A program made the translations under genes and the position numbers. A stretch of DNA of 12,344 nucleotides from contig JAITMP010000012.1 of assembly GCA_031277315.1 (NCBI GenBank), forward strand, positions 1 to 12,344. The letters run 5' to 3'. The first letter of the stretch is position 1, and every line of letters begins with the position of its first letter. The DNA is from Zoogloeaceae bacterium (GTDB lineage Bacteria > Pseudomonadota > Gammaproteobacteria > Burkholderiales > Rhodocyclaceae). The notes under the pieces are model-generated. The model was not told where the DNA came from and searched no databases. It worked only from the letters and a program-made list of their open reading frames with translations. Positions 1 to 9,351 of the stretch are shown here, one piece after another.

Positions 1-1
1 C

Positions 2-178
2 GAATACCATCGCGCGCATATCCGGAGCAAACGCAACCCGCTCGATTTGCTGGCGGGTTATGTTGGCGCGGGCGACGGCCCGCAGGATTTGTCCGCCAAT
101 TACAAGTCGTATCTGACCCAGGCGCTGGAAGACAAAATCCCGCTTGCGGTGCACGAAAAGGACCCCACGGATTCATGA
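2..178 (+). CDS. 3' part of a small ORF (frame 2) ending TGA at 176-178, overlapping the downstream PIN gene start by 4 nt (ATGA); putative type II antitoxin (VapB-like), 5' end outside the window
   Basis: Frame 2 is open from the window edge. GC3-rich codon usage, unlike frame 1. The ATGA stop/start overlap with a PIN-domain gene is classic TA operon architecture. The family cannot be assigned from the C-terminal 58 aa. Confidence 0.4.
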   Translation, partial: EYHRAHIRSKRNPLDLLAGYVGAGDGPQDLSANYKSYLTQALEDKIPLAVHEKDPTDS

Positions 179-591
179 TACTGGCCGATAGCGGGTTCTG
201 GATTGCGCTGGGCAACCGGCGTGATCGCCATCATGCCGCCGCGCGCGCCGCCGCTGAACGCTGGGCCGGCGAAGGGTTCGTCAGCACTTGGCCGGTGCTG
301 ACTGAAGTGACGCATTTGTTGACTGCGCGCATCGGCATTCATCAAGCGCTGGAATTCATGGATGCCATCGCGCAAGGCGCATGCGAAGTGCCGCCGCCGC
401 CCGACAACGCGCTGGCGCACGCTGCCGCGCTGATGCGCCGCTACCGTGATTTACCCATGGACCTGGCCGATGCCTCGCTGGTTATTTTGGCCGAGCAACT
501 GAATGAAGGCCGCATTCTTTCCACCGATCTGCGCGACTTCGGCGGCTACCGCTGGAAAAACACGCAGCCTTTCACCAACCTGCTGCTGTAA
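175..591 (+). CDS. vapC: PIN-domain toxin (VapC family ribonuclease), 138 aa
   Basis: N-terminal [11 protein letters not shown] motif. Acidic residues spaced as in a PIN fold (D at 5, E at 44 in TEVTHLL, D at about 99-102 in DLADASL, D at 120 in STDLRDF). Its size and the translationally coupled upstream small ORF also fit. Confidence 0.75.
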
Positions 592-629
592 CCGGGATCA
601 GGGTCAGCGAAGCGCCGGCATCGAATCGC

Positions 630-1358
630 TCACGCCTCGTCGATGGCGGCGGTTGTATAGACTTCCTGCACGTCGTCGAGCGCGTCGAGCGCGTCGAGCA
701 GCCTTTGCATTTTGGCGGCGTCTTCGCCAGCGAGCGTGGTTTCGTTGAGCGGCTTCAGGGTGATGTCGGCGATTTCGGTTTTCAGACCGGCTTGCTCCAG
801 ACCGGCCTTGACGGCGTGGAAATCGACCGGAGCGCAGATGACTTCAATGCTGCCGTCTTCGTTGGCGAGCACGTCTTCAGCGCCGGCTTCCAGCGCTGCG
901 TCCATCACCTTGTCCTCGCTGGCGCCCGGCGCGAAGATGAACTGGCCGCAGTGCTTGAACTGGAAGGCGACCGAGCCTTCCGCGCCCATGTTGCCGCCGT
1001 GCTTGGAAAAAGCATGGCGCACGTCGGCGACGGTGCGCGTCTTGTTGTCCGTCAGACAATCCACCATCACCGCCGCGCCGCCGATGCCGTAGCCCTCGTA
1101 GCGGATTTCCTCGTAGGTGACGCCATCGAGCTGCCCGGTGCCGCGCTTGATGGCGTTGTCCATATTGTCCCTGGGCAGGCTTTGCGCCTTGGCTTTTTCG
1201 ATCGCCAGACGCAAGCGCGGATTGCTGTTGGGATCGCCGCCGCCCATTTTGGCGGCAACGGTGATTTCCTTGATGAGCTTGGTGAAAACTTTGCCGCGCT
1301 TGGCGTCCTGACGCCCTTTGCGGTGCTGGATGTTGGCCCATTTGGAGTGGCCGGCCAT
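630..1358 (-). CDS. yebC: YebC/PmpR family DNA-binding transcriptional regulator (DUF28), 242 aa
   Basis: N-terminus [32 protein letters not shown] is the hallmark YebC/PmpR start. Length is about 242 aa. RBS GAGAGG lies 6 nt upstream of ATG (cat at 1356-1358). The longer 689-aa ORF in the same frame is an upstream read-through with no support. Confidence 0.9.
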
Positions 1359-1421
1359 GATCAACCTCTCGTCGAAACGCTGCTGATAAAATGCGATTTT
1401 ACACTTACGGGGAATCCGCCG

Positions 1422-2915
1422 ATGGCCCAGCCACTTGTTATTGCACAGACCGGCGCGCTCGAACTGGCGCTGCTGCCGGCGCTCGCTAACCGCCACGGCC
1501 TGATTACTGGCGCCACCGGCACCGGCAAGACTGTCACCCTGCAAGTGCTGGCCGAGCGGTTGTCCTCGATCGGCGTGCCGGTGTTTCTGGCCGATGTGAA
1601 AGGCGATCTTTCCGGGCTGGCCGCGCCCGGCGCCATGACGTCGAAGCTGAAAGCGCGTCTCGATTCGCTTGGCATCGCGGCGCCGGAACCGGCGGCGTTT
1701 CCGGCGGTGTTCTGGGACGTGTTCGGTGAAGCTGGCCATCCGGTGCGCGCCACCGTCTCTGACATGGGGCCGCTGTTGCTTGGTCGTCTGCTCAATCTCA
1801 ACGACACGCAGGCCGGCGTGTTGCAGCTTGTTTTCAAGATCGCCGACGATGCCGGCTTGCTGCTGCTCGATCTGAAAGATCTGCGCGCGATGGTGCAGCA
1901 TGTCGGCGACAATGCCAAACAATTTACCACCGAATACGGCAACGTTTCCACTGCCTCGATCGGCGCCATTCAGCGCAACCTGCTGGCGCTGGAAGCGCAG
2001 GGCGGCGAACAATTCTTCGGCGAGCCGATGCTGGATATCGCCGACCTCATGCAAACCGATGGGCAAGGCCGCGGCATCGTCAATATCCTCGCCGCCGATA
2101 AGCTGCTCAACGCGCCGCGCCTGTATTCGACCTTTCTGCTCTGGTTGCTGTCCGAACTGTTCGAGCGGCTGCCGGAAGTCGGCGATCCCGAGCAGCCGAA
2201 GCTGGTCTTTTTCTTCGACGAAGCGCATCTGCTGTTCAACGAAGCGCCGCCCGCGCTGCTGGAGAAAATCGAGCAGGTCGTGCGCCTGATTCGCTCCAAG
2301 GGCGTCGGCGTTTACTTCATCTCGCAGAATCCGCTCGATGTGCCGCAGACGGTGCTCGGGCAACTCGGCAACCGGGTGCAGCACGCCCTGCGCGCCTTCA
2401 CGCCGCGCGACCAGAAAGCGGTGAAAACGGCGGCGCAAACCCTGCGCCAGAATCCCGCCATCAATACCGAAACCGCCATCACGGAGATGGGCGTCGGCGA
2501 GGCGCTGATTTCCTTCCTCGATGAAAAGGGTCGACCGAATGTGGTCGAACGCGCTTTCATCCTGCCGCCGGCTTCCCGCATCGGGCCGTTGACGGCGGAA
2601 GAACGCAGCGCCGTCATCCGGCGCTCGCTGCTGTCCGGCCATTACGAAAAAGCGGTAGACCGCGAATCCGCCTACGAAAAACTGAAAGCGCGCGCCCAAG
2701 CGGCGGAAGAAGCCGCGCCGCCCGCGAAAGCGTCGCGGCAGCAGTCACAGCCGCAATCCTCCGGCAGCATTCTCGGCGATCTGTTCGGCGGCGGTGGCCG
2801 CCGCCAGTCGGTGGGCGAAGCGGCGGTCAAGAGCGCCGCCCGCGCCATCGGCTCCGAATTTGGCCGTCAAGTGTTGCGCGGCGTGCTCGGTTCGATCCTC
2901 GGCAAGCGGAGCTAA
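1422..2915 (+). CDS. DUF853 / YjgR-like HerA-type P-loop NTPase, 497 aa
   Basis: Walker A GATGTGKT near the N-terminus in the context [21 protein letters not shown]...[15 protein letters not shown] typical of DUF853 (E. coli YjgR-like). The low-complexity C-terminal tail is typical of this family. ATG at 1422 is preceded by GGGGAA. TAAAAT -10-like box at 1387-1392. Divergent from yebC. Confidence 0.75.
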
Positions 2916-2922
2916 TCTGTTC

Positions 2923-3807
2923 ATGGCGCAGGCGCGCACGCTCGGTCTGTTGCTGGCCGGACTGTCGGCGGTTGCTTTTTCCTTCAAGGCGGTTTTCGTC
3001 AAGCTCGGCCTCGCTCACGGCGCCGACGCGCTGACCCTGCTCGCCTTGCGCATGGGTTTCGCCCTGCCGGTTTTTCTTTTCATGGCCTGGCGCAGCGGCG
3101 CGGGCGGCCTCACGCGGCGCGACTGGCTATGGCTGGCGGCGCTCGGCGCGGTCGGCTATTACCTGTCGAGCCTGTTCGATTTCCTTGGCTTGCAGTACAT
3201 CAGCGTCGGCCTCGAACGCATGATCTTGTTCACCTATCCGACGCTGGTGGCGCTGTTCTCGGCGCTGTTTTTCGGCCATGCCATCCGGCCGGCGGCGTGG
3301 GGCGCGCTGGCGCTGTCCTACATCGGCATCGGCCTCGCCGTTTCGCACGATCTGGCTTTCGCCGGCGCATCGCGCGAGTTGATCGCCGGCAGCCTGTGGG
3401 TGTTCGCCAGCGCGGTCAGCTACGCGCTGTTCTGGATGGGTTCCGGCCACGTCGTCATGCGCGTCGGCGCAACGCGCATGACGGCCTTCGTCTCGATCTT
3501 CGCCTGCCTGTTCGTGCTCGGCCATTTCGCCATAGCGCATCCGTTGGCGTCCTTGGCGGCGCCGATGCCGGTGTACATCGACGCGCTGGCGCTGGCGCTG
3601 CTATGCACGGTGCTGCCGATCTGGCTGCAAGCCGGGGCGCTGCGCCGCATCGACGCGCCCACCGCCGCCCTGATCGGCACGCTCGGGCCGGTCATCACCA
3701 TCCTGCTTGGCTGGTGGATACTCGGCGAAGCCATGTCCCTCACCCAATTCGCCGGCCTGAGTCTGGTCGTCGCCGGCGTCCTGCTGGTGGGCGCGAAGCC
3801 GACCTGA
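2923..3807 (+). CDS. EamA/DMT-superfamily permease (two EamA repeats, about 10 TM segments), 294 aa
   Basis: Hydrophobic protein with the duplicated EamA-like pattern (FKAVFVKLGL... in the N-terminal half, LGEAMSLTQFAGLSLVVAGVLLV at the C-terminus). GGAG sits upstream of ATG 2923. The in-frame extension to 2794 overlaps the upstream gene and is rejected. Confidence 0.75.
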   Translation: MAQARTLGLLLAGLSAVAFSFKAVFVKLGLAHGADALTLLALRMGFALPVFLFMAWRSGAGGLTRRDWLWLAALGAVGYYLSSLFDFLGLQYISVGLERMILFTYPTLVALFSALFFGHAIRPAAWGALALSYIGIGLAVSHDLAFAGASRELIAGSLWVFASAVSYALFWMGSGHVVMRVGATRMTAFVSIFACLFVLGHFAIAHPLASLAAPMPVYIDALALALLCTVLPIWLQAGALRRIDAPTAALIGTLGPVITILLGWWILGEAMSLTQFAGLSLVVAGVLLVGAKPT

Positions 3808-3810
3808 CTT

Positions 3811-4638
3811 TTATAGCCCCAAGCGCTGGCAGATCGTGGCGGTCAGGCCGGCTTGGTTGAGGGTGTAGAAGTGCAGCCCCGGCGCGCCGGCGGCGAGGAG
3901 GCGTTGGCAAAGATCGGTGACGACATCGAGGCCGAAGGCGCGCACGGCAGCGGCATCGTCGCCGAGGCTTTCAAACTTGCGCCGCATCCAGCGCGGAATT
4001 TCGGCGCCGCAGGCATCCGAGAAGCGGGCGATCTTGCTGAAGTTGGCGATCGGCATGATGCCGGGCACGATCGGCACGGTGACGCCGAGCGCTTGCGCCG
4101 CGTCGACGAAGTGCGCGTAGGCGTCGGCGTTGTAGAAGTATTGCGTGATGGCGCCGTTGGCGCCGGCGTCGACCTTGCGCTTGAAGTTGAGAAGATCGTC
4201 GCGCGGGCTGCGCGCTTGCGGGTGGTACTCGGGATAGGCGGCGACTTCAATGTGGAACCAGTTGCCGGTTTCGGCGCGGATGAAGTCGACCAGCTCGTTG
4301 GCATGGCGGAATTCGCCCGGATCGGCCATGCCGGAGGGAAGATCGCCGCGCAGGGCGACGATGCGGCGGATGCCGGCGTCCTGATAGCGCGTCAGCAAGG
4401 CGCGCACGTTCTGCCGCGTCGAGCCGACGCAGGAGAGGTGCGGTGCCGCCGGCAGGCCCTCGGCCTGCATCTCCAGCACGGTTTCCAGCGTGCGGTCGCG
4501 GGTGGAGCCGCCGGCGCCGAAGGTGCAGGAGAAGAAGGCCGGCCCAAGCTGCGCCAACTGGCGCCGCGTGGCGCGCAGCTTTTCGGCGCCCTCGGCGGTC
4601 TGCGGCGGAAAAAACTCGAAGGAAATTTCGGCTTTCAT
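3811..4638 (-). CDS. metF: 5,10-methylenetetrahydrofolate reductase MetF, 275 aa
   Basis: N-terminus ISFEFFPP... and full-length MetF-like sequence (FAD-binding TIM barrel motifs). Start ATG at 4638 lies 4 nt after the ahcY stop, so the two are translationally coupled. Confidence 0.9.
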   Translation of the reverse strand: MKAEISFEFFPPQTAEGAEKLRATRRQLAQLGPAFFSCTFGAGGSTRDRTLETVLEMQAEGLPAAPHLSCVGSTRQNVRALLTRYQDAGIRRIVALRGDLPSGMADPGEFRHANELVDFIRAETGNWFHIEVAAYPEYHPQARSPRDDLLNFKRKVDAGANGAITQYFYNADAYAHFVDAAQALGVTVPIVPGIMPIANFSKIARFSDACGAEIPRWMRRKFESLGDDAAAVRAFGLDVVTDLCQRLLAAGAPGLHFYTLNQAGLTATICQRLGL

Positions 4639-4642
4639 GGCA

Positions 4643-6064
<1,422 letters not shown>

Positions 6065-6134
6065 GTTCTCTCCTTGAACTGTGACCGGAAAGGAATGCCC
6101 CGATTTGATTCGGCTCACCTCCCCGGACAACGGG

Positions 6135-6200
6135 TTAGGCGAGCGCGGTTCTGAAATTCCGAGCCTGGGGGATAAAACCCTCGCAGCGCTCCTCGGAGTG
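6135..6200 (-). promoter_or_regulatory. SAH riboswitch aptamer (S-adenosylhomocysteine-sensing, RF01057-like) in the ahcY 5' leader
   Basis: The minus-strand RNA reads CUCCGAGGAGCGCUGCGAGGGUUUUAUCCCCCAGGCUCGGAAUUUCAGAACCGCGCUCGCC. It contains the signature CCGAGGAGCGCUGCGA ... AGGCUCGGAA ... AACNGCGCUC blocks, including the GAGCGC/GCGCUC pseudoknot complement. It lies about 70 nt upstream of ahcY, the canonical SAH-riboswitch target, followed by metF. Confidence 0.8.
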
Positions 6201-6206
6201 GGCGGG

Positions 6207-6235
6207 ATTATAGCGGGTGATGGAAATTAGAACAA
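6207..6235 (-). promoter_or_regulatory. Putative sigma70 promoter for the riboswitch-ahcY-metF transcript (-10 TATAAT at 6207-6212 rc, -35 TTGTTC at 6230-6235 rc, 17-nt spacer)
   Basis: Perfect TATAAT hexamer on the minus strand about 7-10 nt upstream of the first conserved riboswitch nucleotides. The -35 is weak (TTG only). Confidence 0.4.
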
Positions 6236-6360
6236 AGGGTAATTAACCGCAGGGGCAAGGGTCTCCCGCACGGCTTATAAGATTTACTACAAAAAACGCT
6301 TCACCTTGCACATTCGACCGTGCATCGCAAGACGGCAGGTTATAACGTCGCGCCAGTTGC

Positions 6361-6401
6361 AAAATAAACAATGAAGAAAGACGGCGGCATTTCTGCCGCC
6401 G
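6361..6401 (-). terminator. Rho-independent terminator downstream of rtcB
   Basis: On the minus strand: 8-bp GC stem CGGCGGCA / UGCCGCCG with GAAA loop (plus coordinates 6382-6401), followed by UCUUUCUUCAUUGUUUAUUUUG. It lies 14 nt after the rtcB stop (TAA 6415-6417 rc). Confidence 0.55.
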
Positions 6402-6414
6402 CCGTTTCCCGTCA

Positions 6415-7632
6415 TTACCCTTTCACACACACGATTTGCTTCAGTGTGTACACCACTTCCACCAAGTCCGCCTGCGCGGCCATCACGGCGTCGATGTCCT
6501 TGTAGGCGGCCGGCGTTTCGTCAATCACGCCGGCATCCTTGTGGCATTCGACACCGCGAGTAGCCGCTTCGTGGTCGGCGACGGTGTAGGTCGCTTTCGC
6601 CTTGGTGCGGCTCATCACGCGGCCTGCGCCATGCGAGCAGCTTTCAAAACTCTCCGGATTGCCGAGACCACGCACGATGAAGCTGCGCGCGCCCATGCTG
6701 CCGGGGATGATGCCAAGCTGCCCTTTTCTGGCGCTAACCGCGCCCTTGCGGGTGACGTACACGTCCTCGCCGAAGTGGTGTTCCTTTTGCACATAGTTGT
6801 GGTGGCAATTCACCGCTTCCAGGTGTGTCTGGAAAGGCTTGGCGATTACTTTGCGCACGGCCTCGATGACCGACTGCATCATCACTTCCCGATTCAGCGC
6901 CGCGAACTTTTGCGCCCAGCCGACTGCGCGGACGTAGTCAGTAAAGTATTTGCTGCCTTCCTCGAAGTAAGCCAGATCGCGATCCGGCAGATGAACGTCA
7001 TTTTTCATGGCGTCCTCGCGCGCCAGCGCGATGAACATGGTGCCGATGGCATTGCCCACACCACGGCTGCCCGAGTGCAACATGAACCAGACCGCGCCTT
7101 GCTCATCGAGGCAAACTTCCACGAAGTGATTGCCGGTTCCCAATGTGCCCAGATGGTTGATGTTGTTGGTCTTCGCCAATTGCGGATACTCCTGTGCCAA
7201 CGCTTCAAACTCAGGACGCAATTCAGCCCATGCCTTGCTCACAGATTCCGGCGCTTTCTCCAGCTTCCATGCGCCGGGGTCGCCCATGCCGGGACGCCGC
7301 CCGTGCGGAACGGCCTTTTCGATGGCCGCGCGCATGGGCGCCAGGTTGTCGGGCAAGTCTTCGGCGCACAAGGTTGTCTTGCAGGCGATCATGCCGCAAC
7401 CGATGTCCACGCCAACGGCGGCGGGAATGATGGCGCGCAAGGTCGGCACGACCGATCCCACCGTCGCACCAATGCCCACATGCACATCCGGCATGGCGGC
7501 CACGTGCTTGAACACGATGGGCAACCGGGCAGTGTTCGACAACTGCTCCAGTGCCTTGGGTTCAACAGGCACGCCATTTGTCCATCGCTTCAGCGGAACG
7601 CCGCCTTCGATTTGTTCTTCGATGTATCGCAT
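6415..7632 (-). CDS. rtcB: RNA-splicing ligase RtcB (3'-phosphate/2',3'-cyclic phosphate + 5'-OH RNA ligase), 405 aa
   Basis: Full-length RtcB-like sequence: MPDVHVGIGATVGSV, GVDIGCGM, metal-binding His clusters, and the C-terminal CxHGAGR motif at SCSHGAGRVMSR. Start chosen at ATG 7632 (MRYIEE...) with GGAGGAAAU 9 nt upstream. The ORF-track start at 7653 is a TTG. Confidence 0.9.
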   Translation of the reverse strand: MRYIEEQIEGGVPLKRWTNGVPVEPKALEQLSNTARLPIVFKHVAAMPDVHVGIGATVGSVVPTLRAIIPAAVGVDIGCGMIACKTTLCAEDLPDNLAPMRAAIEKAVPHGRRPGMGDPGAWKLEKAPESVSKAWAELRPEFEALAQEYPQLAKTNNINHLGTLGTGNHFVEVCLDEQGAVWFMLHSGSRGVGNAIGTMFIALAREDAMKNDVHLPDRDLAYFEEGSKYFTDYVRAVGWAQKFAALNREVMMQSVIEAVRKVIAKPFQTHLEAVNCHHNYVQKEHHFGEDVYVTRKGAVSARKGQLGIIPGSMGARSFIVRGLGNPESFESCSHGAGRVMSRTKAKATYTVADHEAATRGVECHKDAGVIDETPAAYKDIDAVMAAQADLVEVVYTLKQIVCVKG

Positions 7633-7647
7633 TTCATATTTCCTCCA

Positions 7648-7683
7648 GAGCAATCCGGAGGAGATTCCTCCTCCGGGTTGCTC
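7648..7683 (-). promoter_or_regulatory. Intercistronic stem-loop (16-bp stem, 4-nt loop, one mismatch) between the SPFH gene stop and the rtcB RBS
   Basis: Plus-strand gagcaaTccggaggag-attc-ctcctccggGttgctc is a near-perfect palindrome. The arms contain GGAGGAG/CUCCUCC (SD and anti-SD-like), immediately 5' of the rtcB SD (UGGAGGAAAU). No U-tract follows, so it is not a canonical terminator. Confidence 0.4.
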
Positions 7684-8818
7684 AATTCAATTTAACCAAG
7701 CCGTTCAGCACCTGATCCAGACCACCGAACACGGAAATCCGGTCGATACGCTCGGCTACGCGCTCCAGCGTTTCCAGCTCTTTCAGACGCAAAGCCACAG
7801 GGTTGTCCTCCATGACCTTGGCGGTGTTGAGCAGGGAACGCGTCGCCGCAGTTTCCTCACGACGGCGGATGACGTTGGCCTCAGCCGTTTTACCCGCTTC
7901 CACGACACGCGCCAGAATGGTTTTCATGTCGCCGGGAAGCACGATGTCCTTCACGCCGACGCCTTCCAGCGACAGGCCGTTTTCTGTCAGACGCGCTTGC
8001 ACTTGCCGAATCACGACTTCGTCGATGACGGTTTTGTTTTCCAGCAATTCATCCAGCGTGCGCGTACCCACGGCAGCGCGCAACGCCAGTTGCAACTCGC
8101 GATACAGATAATCCGCGGGCGAGGAAAGTTCGCGATGCGCCTTGAGCACGTCAACATAACGCCATGTGGCAGACAAATTCAGCCGTAAAGCCACTTTGTC
8201 GCGCGTCAGGATTTCCTGACCGGAAACCTCCATAGCCTGCAAACGCAGATCAACCACATCCACCGACACCACGTGGCTGAACTTCCAGAAAGCATGTGCG
8301 CCGGTATCCAGCAAGCCGATCACTTTGCCATCGACCCGCAGAATGCCCACGCCATGATCCGGCACCTGAATCTGCAACACGCCATGCAAAGCCGTCGCGA
8401 TACGTTGACGCGATTGCATTTGCAGCAGGCGGGAATTCAGCGCTTGCGGTACTTCTACCGTGTCAGCAATATCGATAACTTCCGCCTGCACGTCGATCAG
8501 CCCTTTCCAGTACAGACGGCGCGAACCGGGGCGCAAGATTTCCACCAGCACACCGCTTTCGCTGCGCAGACCGACCTGATTTTCGGAAAGTTCGACACGC
8601 AGGAATTCACGCGCAACCACTTCCGGCTCTTGCGCCAGCAGATAATCCAGCAGCTCGTGCGCGAACTCGGGCTGCTCCAGATTGAAGCGTTGCACCGAGA
8701 GCTTGTCGAAAGCGCTGAATAGATTGTGCGTGCCCGCGTGCAGCACGCGTTCGAAATCGCCGTTGCGCAGCAACAGGCCACGCTCATTTTTTCGAATCGT
8801 AATTCGGTTGAAATTCAT
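7682..8818 (-). CDS. SPFH/Band-7 (stomatin/prohibitin/flotillin/HflKC superfamily, slipin-like) protein without an obvious TM anchor, 378 aa
   Basis: C-terminal region ...DIVLPGDMKTILARVVEAGKTAEANVIRRREETAATRSLLNTAKVMEDNPVALRLKELETLERVAE carries the conserved SPFH coiled-coil and the NP(A/V)AL(R/Q)L(K/R)xLETL motif. AAGGAGA RBS lies 5 nt before ATG 8818. The stop is 49 nt upstream of the rtcB start, consistent with one operon. Confidence 0.75.
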   Translation of the reverse strand: MNFNRITIRKNERGLLLRNGDFERVLHAGTHNLFSAFDKLSVQRFNLEQPEFAHELLDYLLAQEPEVVAREFLRVELSENQVGLRSESGVLVEILRPGSRRLYWKGLIDVQAEVIDIADTVEVPQALNSRLLQMQSRQRIATALHGVLQIQVPDHGVGILRVDGKVIGLLDTGAHAFWKFSHVVSVDVVDLRLQAMEVSGQEILTRDKVALRLNLSATWRYVDVLKAHRELSSPADYLYRELQLALRAAVGTRTLDELLENKTVIDEVVIRQVQARLTENGLSLEGVGVKDIVLPGDMKTILARVVEAGKTAEANVIRRREETAATRSLLNTAKVMEDNPVALRLKELETLERVAERIDRISVFGGLDQVLNGLVKLN

Positions 8819-9098
8819 GATTTCTCCTTTTTTCTTCTTTCAATAACAAGTGCCGTTACAGCAGTAGCGGCGGACAGGGAAGCGCCATACCTTGACCTGT
8901 CGGTGCGCATGGTCAATCAAGATCGACCCGGCTTGCCGAAGGCGCCGATATGGAGGATTCCATGCCGGGCCGCTACCGCTGACGGATGACAGACCGGCTG
9001 ATGCAGAGCCATGCCAGCCTCTGCATGCAACCAAGCTGCAACCCGCGTTCGACGTGGTCTTGCGACCGTTTTTGGTGATTGATTTTCAGTCAATCGTT

Positions 9099-9171
9099 TG
9101 GCTTTTGGAGCGGGATTCGAACCCGCAACAACAGTTATACAGACTGTCGCGCACCGCTGCGCCATCCAAAA
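9099..9171 (-). tRNA. tRNA-like gene, 73 nt with encoded CCA; cloverleaf with anticodon GUA (Tyr-like) but class I (4-nt variable loop), U1-A72, G73 and U37
   Basis: Hand-folded from the minus strand: UUUUGGA-UG-GCGC-AGCGGU-GCGC-G-ACAGU-CUGUAUA-ACUGU-UGUU-GCGGG-UUCGAAU-CCCGC-UCCAAAA-G-CCA. The T-loop UUCGAAU is canonical and all four stems pair perfectly. The anticodon loop differs from the bacterial tRNA-Tyr loop CUGUAAA only by A37U, yet it lacks the long variable arm and A73 of bacterial tRNA-Tyr. Confidence 0.5.
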
Positions 9172-9351
9172 CACTCTCGTTGGTTTTCGGGACCAAGAGA
9201 TTGCATCAACCAATTCCTGCTCGGCGGCATACGCGATCACGACGGAATTTTTCACTCCGGCAATGCGCACCGGCGTGGCGGGATTCCTCCCTAACCCCTG
9301 ACCTGTTAGCGTTGCATTCCTTGATTAATTCTTTACAGCCCGGCTTTACAA

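Follow-up and report, generated by a model that had tools for sequence, protein, structure and literature searches.

The stretch of DNA analyzed here (the window) is a contig of 12,344 base pairs (bp) from a metagenome-assembled genome (MAG) of a Zoogloeaceae bacterium, and its minus strand carries at positions 9099..9171 an element resembling a transfer RNA (tRNA) that ARAGORN calls tRNA-Tyr(gta). This element is probably the tRNA-mimic module of a structured RNA of about 500 nucleotides (nt), located upstream of the genes encoding slipin and the RNA ligase RtcB at the tail of a remnant, horizontally acquired tRNA array with its HNH gene, and not a tRNA that decodes tyrosine codons. The RNA shows a fixed genomic linkage to HNH, slipin and RtcB genes and, usually, to a tRNA array. 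The verdict reached is that the element is an atypical new member of the predicted class of tRNA mimics associated with Band-7 proteins and RtcB.

The tRNA-like element and its relatives

Read 5' to 3', the element consists of the segments UUUUGGA UG GCGC AGCGGU GCGC G ACAGU CUGUAUA ACUGU UGUU GCGGG UUCGAAU CCCGC UCCAAAA G CCA. The acceptor stem contains 7/7 pairs, beginning with U1-A72 through U4-A69, and is followed by the discriminator G73; the anticodon loop of 7 nt (C32 U33 G34 U35 A36 U37 A38) presents the triplet GUA, the variable loop has 4 nt (UGUU), the D-loop is short (6 nt) and the T-loop is canonical. The Rfam tRNA model (RF00005) matches positions 9102-9171 with 57.7 bits (E 1.5e-10; gathering score 29), and the element alone folds as a cloverleaf with a minimum free energy (MFE) of -27.4 kcal/mol (z = -2.14, 200 shuffles). 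The cloverleaf is far beyond chance on account of the Infernal E-value and of the position and structure kept in dozens of related loci. A preliminary description of this DNA had proposed, naming no strand, a 73-nt cloverleaf with a GUA anticodon, which is borne out by ARAGORN, Rfam and the MFE with the correction that the 73 nt include the encoded CCA, so that the tRNA body is 70 nt; the 4-nt variable loop, the U1-A72 pair with its UUUU/AAAA acceptor start, G73 and U37 are likewise all present when the minus strand is read.

Among the related loci, which were picked through slipin similarity and come mostly from Burkholderiales metagenome contigs, 46 had a tRNA detected by ARAGORN at a distance of 300-400 nt upstream of slipin, with one common body (…UGGAUAGCUCAGUCGGGUAGAGCAACG…CGUCUGUCGCGGGUUCGAcUCCCGCUCCA…) and at least 14 anticodons (GAU, CAU, CGU, AGU, UGU, GUU, CUU, UCU, AAU, GAC, AGC, ACC, GAA and GUA). 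A structure-guided parse that took in 62 unique copies of this family gave 20 different triplets, GUA being found solely in the window. The loop has 7 nt in 51 copies, including that of the window, 6 nt in 8 and 5 nt in 3, and in one subfamily a GNRA tetraloop caps the arm in place of the anticodon loop. The seven-nt loops share a frame of C32 (41/51), U33 (37/51) and A38 (44/51), all three of which are present in the window; position 37 is occupied by A in 38/51 and by U only in the window. Acceptor pairing amounts to 4/7 in 28 copies, 5/7 in 20, 6/7 in 10 and 3/7 in 3, with 7/7 reached only by the window, and CCA follows the discriminator in 3/62 (L101, L102 and the window).

Covariation of the cloverleaf was tested in 33 family members, the window being excluded. 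Pairing was found in 89.9% of the cells (80.9% in shuffled alignments), and the covariation score was 0.251 compared to 0.083 in shuffles (0/500) and at most 0.064 in slid registers. Pairing is complete (100%) in the D, anticodon and T stems, and compensatory changes occur at all five pairs of the anticodon stem and also in the T stem. Of the nominal acceptor pairs, 1-73 does not form in 28/33 members and 2-72 does not form in 24/33. The suggestion that the element is a pseudo-tRNA is not supported in view of this family-wide pairing and of the compensatory changes that accompany it.

Rates of change were compared between copies in which 47 core sites are nearly identical. Per-site change was 0.47-0.56 at the triplet, 0.48-0.60 at unpaired proxy sites, 0-0.05 in the core and 0.07-0.30 at loop positions 32, 33, 37 and 38. 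Relative to the divergence of the whole gap the triplet evolves 4-5 times faster than the average site, and one clade holds CAU up to 7.7% divergence. Positive (diversifying) selection on the triplet was considered and rejected, since its rate equals that of the unpaired proxy sites and CAU is retained by one clade. It is concluded that the shape of the loop, and not the triplet, is under selection, and a family of decoding tRNAs would show the opposite pattern from this free triplet in a fixed loop frame. With 20 triplets, mostly 4-5 acceptor pairs and no CCA in the positional orthologs, decoding cannot be the function for which the family is selected, and the comparison of sequences indicates that the GUA triplet of the element is without coding meaning.

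Tyrosine identity can be judged in the same terms. Recognition by the bacterial tyrosyl-tRNA synthetase (TyrRS) depends on A73 and on a long variable arm. The element does have GUA in a 7-nt loop with U33, but the class II long variable arm is absent, its place being taken by the 4-nt loop, as are A73 and a purine at position 37 (G73 and U37 are found instead), and the anticodon is not conserved at the orthologous position. By comparison, the tRNA-Tyr genes of the adjoining arrays in related loci are canonical class II tRNAs of 86-87 nt that end in A73-CCA. The class I architecture, G73 and U37 support the earlier statement that this is not an ordinary bacterial tRNA-Tyr; the accompanying idea of a tyrosine tRNA that TyrRS reads poorly is not supported, as GUA occurs in 1/51 family members with a 7-nt loop and the tyrosine identity therefore arose by accident in a single lineage. 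A class I "tRNA-Tyr(GUA)" of 76 nt, with U1-A72 and G73, was also observed in locus L109, 3617 nt upstream of the slipin start, in an array slot that is held by tRNA-Asn(GUU) in sister arrays. This gene looks like an Asn tRNA with its anticodon mutated to GUA, and false "class I Tyr" calls would then have two separate origins.

The window copy was placed in the family by means of an alignment of the whole gaps of 44 loci, end to end and with the window included. In this alignment it takes the position of the gap tRNA-likes of the related loci, conserved flanking blocks align on both sides, and its T arm and 3' acceptor strand are identical to those of family members; against the family model it scores 54.1 bits, a value in the range of ordinary tRNAs. 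Compared to the family, its D stem has changed from GCUC/GAGC to GCGC/GCGC and its anticodon stem from ACGAC/GUCGU to ACAGU/ACUGU, and these compensatory changes argue for continued selection on the fold and not for decay.

The structured RNA of the HNH-slipin gap

The element is part of the RNA predicted for the whole HNH-to-slipin intergenic region, which in the window measures 533 nt (8819..9351, minus strand). RNAalifold applied to the 44 gaps, out of at least 483 loci linked to slipin, returned 98 pairs, 62 of them with compensatory double changes. When the 89 pairs outside the tRNA-like module were considered, 94.6% of the cells were paired (80.9% after shuffling), 59 pairs showed double changes compared to 41.4 in shuffled alignments (0/500), and the covariation score was 0.442 versus 0.191 in shuffles and at most 0.094 in slid registers. 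Rfam 15 holds no family for this RNA, the window and the canonical relatives searched giving only the generic tRNA match and a non-specific, sub-threshold match to YrlA.

From 5' to 3' on the minus strand, the RNA of the window begins with a multi-helix domain (9205..9329) of 37 consensus pairs, of which the window has 28, mapped onto it, like the 3' domain, from the RNAalifold consensus. It is followed by a hairpin, CUCUUGGU-cccgaaa-ACCAACGAGAG (9174..9199), aligned where other loci have a first tRNA-like module (tRNA-like 1), by the element itself, and by a second mimic of an anticodon stem-loop, GAUUGA-CUGAAAA-UCAAUC (9077..9095), at a position shared with related loci. Next come an invariant GGUC-GNAA-GACC hairpin (GGTCGCAAGACC; 9056..9067), paired in 43/43, and a 3' multi-helix domain (8852..9053) with 43 consensus pairs (37 in the window), ending in a conserved CUGUAACGGCAC that stops some 30 nt short of the ribosome-binding site of slipin. 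A weak terminator-like site is located at 8863..8851.

In the related loci, tRNA-like 1 has a covarying acceptor of 7 bp (of 54 unique copies, 41 have 7/7 pairs and the other 13 have 6/7), and the rest of it is composed of a linker that contains GG, a hairpin capped in most cases by GNRA, a T arm and, in 35/54, N73-CCA. tRNA-like 2 corresponds to the gap family described above, with D arm, anticodon-loop mimic, T arm and mostly 4-5 acceptor pairs. A free anticodon-stem-loop hairpin is found in 36/62 unique loci, and the 23 that have a 7-nt loop show C32 in 21/23, U33 in 22/23 and A37 in 21/23 along with 15 triplets. Typical loci split the features of a tRNA between module 1 (acceptor and CCA) and module 2 (D arm and anticodon-type loop), and the single module of the window unites all of them, namely 7/7 acceptor pairs, G73-CCA and an anticodon-type loop. 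It can be hypothesized that an acceptor/T helix ending in CCA and one or more mimics of an anticodon loop are what the RNA requires, and that the window lineage may have merged them. In the distant locus L018 (6573-7153), from a Gammaproteobacteria MAG, the order of the tRNA-like modules is apparently reversed: the full-length one, with the 5-nt loop GAAUA, comes first, a second T-arm element lies about 60 nt downstream, and the flanks do not align with the Burkholderiales RNA.

Gene neighbourhood in the window and in related loci

More than 80 related loci, mostly of Burkholderiales, share a layout of L-type tRNA array, HNH, gap of about 500 nt, slipin and RtcB. This order recurs in L018, in L086-L089 and in 80 metagenome loci found via slipin; in the latter two sets it comprises an array of up to 23 tRNAs, sometimes a PcfJ-like gene, HNH, the gap, slipin, sometimes a protease-like gene, and RtcB, which follows slipin in most related loci. 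The T-loop motif is present within the gap in 77/81 loci having enough upstream sequence. For the slipin itself there are over 7,800 relatives, about 75% identical to it and going by the name "slipin family protein", and the HNH family includes more than 500 proteins. Where long contigs are concerned, the HNH genes most closely related to that of the window (65-70% identity; in Variovorax and a compost MAG) are located inside tRNA arrays of 33-37 genes. The HNH family was nevertheless discarded as a universal marker of tRNA arrays, as relatives with about 50% identity in 80 reference genomes stand mostly beside ribF-ileS with no tRNAs, and the linkage to arrays is limited to the closer HNH subfamily.

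Some loci depart from this layout or extend it. In L081 (3600-4315), RtcB (79% identical at its N-terminus) begins 12 nt past the stop of HNH, the latter being the closest relative of the window protein (88% identity), and structured RNA, slipin and upstream tRNAs are absent, an arrangement which suggests that the RNA-plus-slipin unit behaves as an insertable or removable module. In L086, L088 and L089 a PcfJ-like gene (PF14284, about 380 amino acids, aa) precedes HNH and a protease-like gene of 339 aa, with a faint SDH_protease match, lies between slipin and RtcB; the window has neither. Locus L088 belongs to Piscinibacter sp. XHJ-5 (CP123228.1, about 6.2525-6.2656 Mb). The neighbourhood of the giant arrays in L084/L085 (11826-12869; Variovorax replicons of about 800 kb) encodes a 172-aa PCRF/RF-1 domain protein, which is PrfH-like, and SecB. 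PrfH is known to pair with RtcB.

In the window, ten open reading frames (ORFs) of which were scanned with Pfam, the order on the minus strand is the metK C-terminus, a HicB-like ORF, a tRNA-like gene with an 8-nt loop, tRNA-His, HNH, the element, slipin, RtcB, and an S-adenosylhomocysteine (SAH) riboswitch followed by ahcY-metF. The HNH endonuclease gene (9352..9915, 187 aa; Pfam HNH/HNH_5, E 6e-16) is directly upstream of the structured RNA and the slipin/SPFH (Band-7) gene (7682..8818, 378 aa; Band_7, E 6.6e-28) directly downstream of it, with its start 280 nt from the end of the element on the same strand, and the RtcB gene (6415..7653, 412 aa; RtcB, E 2e-128) comes directly after slipin; all three are encoded on the minus strand and are intact over their full length. 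The SAH riboswitch (6134-6200, minus strand; Rfam RF01057, 58 bits), directly upstream of ahcY-metF, represents an ordinary and expected layout.

The tRNA-like genes of the window are three, and the HNH gene separates the element from the other two, a tRNA-His(GUG) with G-1, C73 and CCA (10023..10097, minus strand; ARAGORN and Rfam) and a third gene with a Phe-like body, an 8-nt anticodon loop (UUGAGAGA) and an encoded CCA (10122..10194, minus strand), which Rfam recognizes with 40.1 bits and ARAGORN misses. These two genes look like the remnant of an upstream tRNA array. The 17 "genes" listed for the window by ARAGORN at low threshold were dismissed as noise. The third gene has a perfect GC-rich acceptor stem and G73-CCA, and its body is 77% identical to the array tRNA-Phe(GAA) of L157, as though one loop base had been inserted; it could be a pseudogene or a tRNA of the +1-frameshift type. 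His(GUG) genes are the most constant members of the arrays upstream of HNH, and most of them (GTGGCCG...CGGTCACCCC; L086, L091, L093, L128 and many others) are preceded by T or C, and not G, so that G-1 is not genomically encoded there, unlike in the window and in arrays of the L115/L124 type. The tRNA-His of the window shows a G3:U70 wobble in the acceptor stem that the array tRNA-His of related loci lack. The G3:U70 pair is the main identity element of alanine tRNAs. The interval from tRNA-His to the start codon of HNH contains a terminator-like hairpin (9947-9959, minus strand), CCUUCCGUGAAGG followed by CCAUUUUUCA. A fourth, truncated mini tRNA-like with a CCA-ended look was considered at about 9990-9940 and rejected, as Rfam did not recover it at E<=5 and the terminator-like hairpin at 9959..9947 is a simpler explanation.

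The G+C content falls from 0.63-0.68 over positions 1-6000 to 0.50-0.57 (about 0.55) over approximately 6000-12344. The low-G+C segment, which carries RtcB, slipin, the RNA, HNH, the tRNAs and the HicB-like ORF, is flanked by metK on one side and by the SAH-riboswitch-ahcY operon on the other, and looks like an island that was acquired by insertion between the metK and ahcY genes. The phage-type tRNA proposed in the preliminary description, and with it a phage origin of the region, was discarded: a blastn search with 8820-10260 gave no match among 50,697 phage records, the slipin has no relatives in the viral contigs of IMG/VR, and the context is chromosomal. Assignment to a defence system was rejected as well, as in PADLOC the HNH protein drew only generic HNH-motif matches (PtuB, Cas9 HNH); the same search returned nothing for RtcB, slipin, the HicB-like protein and two small ORFs.

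Known systems, alternative explanations and possible function

The closest description available is that of b7a-tRNA, a predicted non-coding RNA (ncRNA) resembling tRNA that is found by a Band-7 gene and RtcB and is credited to Burroughs & Aravind 2016 (Nucleic Acids Res 44:8525) by a later paper, according to which it was experimentally unvalidated as of 2018 and possibly redundant in function with YrlA (Wang et al. 2018, bioRxiv 10.1101/312249). The element fits the account given there, as it has a tRNA-like fold, an adjacent Band-7/SPFH gene on the same strand and RtcB in the cluster. Compared by that description, the features of the family in the window and related loci are the covarying RNA of about 500 nt, the CCA-ended mini-module, the free stem-loop mimic, the free triplet and the association with HNH and L-type arrays. 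Within the b7a-like family sampled here the window copy is atypical, with its full acceptor and CCA and no module 1.

YrlA and other bacterial Y RNAs are encoded in rsr-yrlBA-rtcBA operons (Chen et al. 2014, PMC4201824; Rfam RF02553), and YrlA's tRNA-like domain has been proposed to be a competitive inhibitor of anticodon nuclease (Hughes et al. 2020, PMC7790460). The likeness consists in an ncRNA with a tRNA-like domain that shares its RtcB operon with the adjacent gene of a putative scaffold protein; YrlA has been proposed as RtcB cofactor or anticodon-nuclease competitor. However, the partner here is slipin/Band-7 and not Ro60/Rsr, and the RNA exceeds YrlA about fourfold in length and includes a true loop of the anticodon type. 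The YrlA model of Rfam gave no match in the window at E<=5, and on a canonical relative it reached 26.5 bits against a gathering score of 69, which does not surpass what it gives over ordinary tRNAs. No TROVE domain was detected with Pfam among the ten window ORFs scanned, the neighbours being HNH, Band_7 and RtcB.

L-arrays are long, horizontally transferred tRNA arrays with a conserved linked HNH gene and a co-regulated rtcB that are induced by translational stress, and their tRNAs have been speculated to act as a sponge for toxin ribonucleases (RNases) (Santamaria-Gomez et al. 2021, PMC8421152). In Anabaena the tRNA array belongs to the TrcR regulon together with HNH genes, a slipin gene and rtcB (PMC10272220), these being co-regulated under translational stress. 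The linked HNH gene and RtcB near the element resemble this system, and the window can be seen as a physically clustered version of an association already observed in cyanobacteria. It differs in that the window retains two array-type genes and the element is not an array member but a separate mimic downstream of HNH within a structured RNA; furthermore, array tRNAs keep canonical identity features, the class II tRNA-Tyr being an example. As large and highly structured bacterial RNAs, GOLLD, which occurs inside mycobacterial tRNA arrays as indicated in the reference list of PMC12286853, ROOL and HEARO also bear some resemblance, by virtue of proximity to tRNA arrays and, for HEARO, to an HNH gene. 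Their Rfam models found no match in the window or in L086, L088, L089, L093, L128 and L145, even at E<=1-5, and the HNH protein here is a stand-alone enzyme of 187 aa and not IscB/IsrB.

Based on these comparisons it can be proposed that the RNA would be expressed with the slipin-rtcB transcript, or as its leader, under translational or RNA-damage stress, and that it would act as a tRNA mimic by analogy with the tRNA-like domain that YrlA, a Y RNA, has in rsr-yrl-rtcBA operons. It may bait or compete for ribonucleases directed at the anticodon loop, or it may serve as a cofactor or scaffold that brings a slipin assembly and RtcB to broken tRNAs, and under either option the GUA triplet would be non-coding. 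The decoy tRNA put forward in the preliminary description comes near this best current reading, though it overlooked the HNH/slipin/RtcB cassette and the context of a structured RNA of about 500 nt. A more elaborate version must be regarded as tentative, namely that this previously undescribed RNA of about 500 nt and 100 bp, with acceptor/T, D/anticodon/T and free anticodon mimics and two covarying flanks, forms a ribonucleoprotein (RNP) with a soluble slipin scaffold and RtcB, and that such a Y-RNA-like or vault-RNA-like RNP baits anticodon-directed ribotoxins or presents cleaved tRNAs for religation.

Several observations weigh against the tRNA-mimic interpretation. The mechanism is deduced from anatomy and gene neighbourhood, the identification with b7a-tRNA relies on the description in the citing paper, and the variability of the triplet, being no more than neutral, gives no positive support for a bait matched to a toxin. 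The window keeps 80/98 consensus pairs, the joint lowest of the 44 copies, and it has neither module 1 nor the genes for PcfJ and the protease that occur elsewhere. The 54.1 bits were obtained with a family covariance model built without the window and lie inside the 30-72 of ordinary array tRNAs; as a membership test this model was rejected, because it fails to discriminate the family from ordinary tRNAs, and so the membership of the window rests on position and flanking homology. Finally, the window copy is the sole family member that looks fully tRNA-competent (7/7 acceptor, G73, CCA), and it could be processed, even aminoacylated, in its lineage.

A serious alternative, although judged rather improbable, is that the RNA is a cis-acting leader of slipin-rtcB, either as punctuation for RNase P/Z or as a damage sensor whose cleavage by anticodon nuclease alters the stability or translation of the message. 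It is in keeping with this that the structure reaches to about 30 nt from the slipin ribosome-binding site, with only the weak terminator-like hairpin at 8863..8851, that most copies, lacking CCA and having an acceptor of 4-5 bp, are suggestive of no release as tRNAs, and that among the main ORFs of the window no RtcR-type regulator was identified with Pfam. In addition, Salmonella rtcBA is induced by damaged tRNA fragments (PMC7790460). Conversely, a promoter scan found nothing, the N-CCA ending of module 1 in 35/54 copies and the G-CCA ending of the window element suggest 3'-end maturation to a discrete RNA, and 500 nt with about 100 covarying pairs far exceed what a processing signal needs.

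It is very unlikely that the element is a decoding tRNA from a mobile array, that is, an unusual class I tRNA-Tyr or a tRNA charged otherwise that reads UAY in the course of stress mistranslation. The perfect cloverleaf, the 7/7 acceptor, the canonical T-loop, U33, the encoded CCA and the vicinity of other array tRNAs would all suit such a tRNA, but both determinants of TyrRS identity, A73 and the long variable arm, are absent, U37 replaces a purine (A in 38/51 family loops), the positional orthologs show 20 triplets, mostly 4-5 acceptor pairs and no CCA, and the arrays of related loci already carry a canonical class II tRNA-Tyr. In favour of such a tRNA, 23/26 array tRNAs of Anabaena are aminoacylated in vivo, some of them migrating aberrantly as if mischarged (PMC8421152). 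Also very unlikely is a decaying relic, in which an array tRNA or b7a module would be drifting to a pseudogene in a degraded island with U37, G73 and GUA as mutations, since, despite the 2-3 tRNA genes compared to up to 23 elsewhere, one of them with an 8-nt anticodon loop, the missing module 1, PcfJ and protease and the joint lowest flanking-structure score of the 44 copies, all stems of the window element are fully paired with compensatory changes in the D and anticodon stems, acceptor pairs and CCA were gained and not lost, and the ORFs of HNH, slipin and RtcB are undamaged and of full length.

Annotation pipelines will label the element and its relatives as tRNA-Tyr, -Ile, -Met, -Thr and so on, and, the triplet having no conserved coding meaning, such calls inflate and distort the tRNA gene sets of many Burkholderiales genomes. 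The present analysis contributes about 60 non-redundant examples of the tRNA-like module and a covariation-supported structure for it, Rfam having no family, together with evidence that the module belongs to a far larger structured RNA linked with HNH, slipin, RtcB and mobile tRNA arrays; among the by-products of the analysis, this surrounding RNA, about 500 nt long, is the most interesting. If the RNP reading is true, an RNA-repair RNP would be attached to mobile tRNA arrays across Burkholderiales. The old question of the role of tRNA mimics in bacterial RNA-repair operons is thereby made concrete, and cultivable hosts exist, such as Piscinibacter sp. XHJ-5 (locus L088) and Variovorax.

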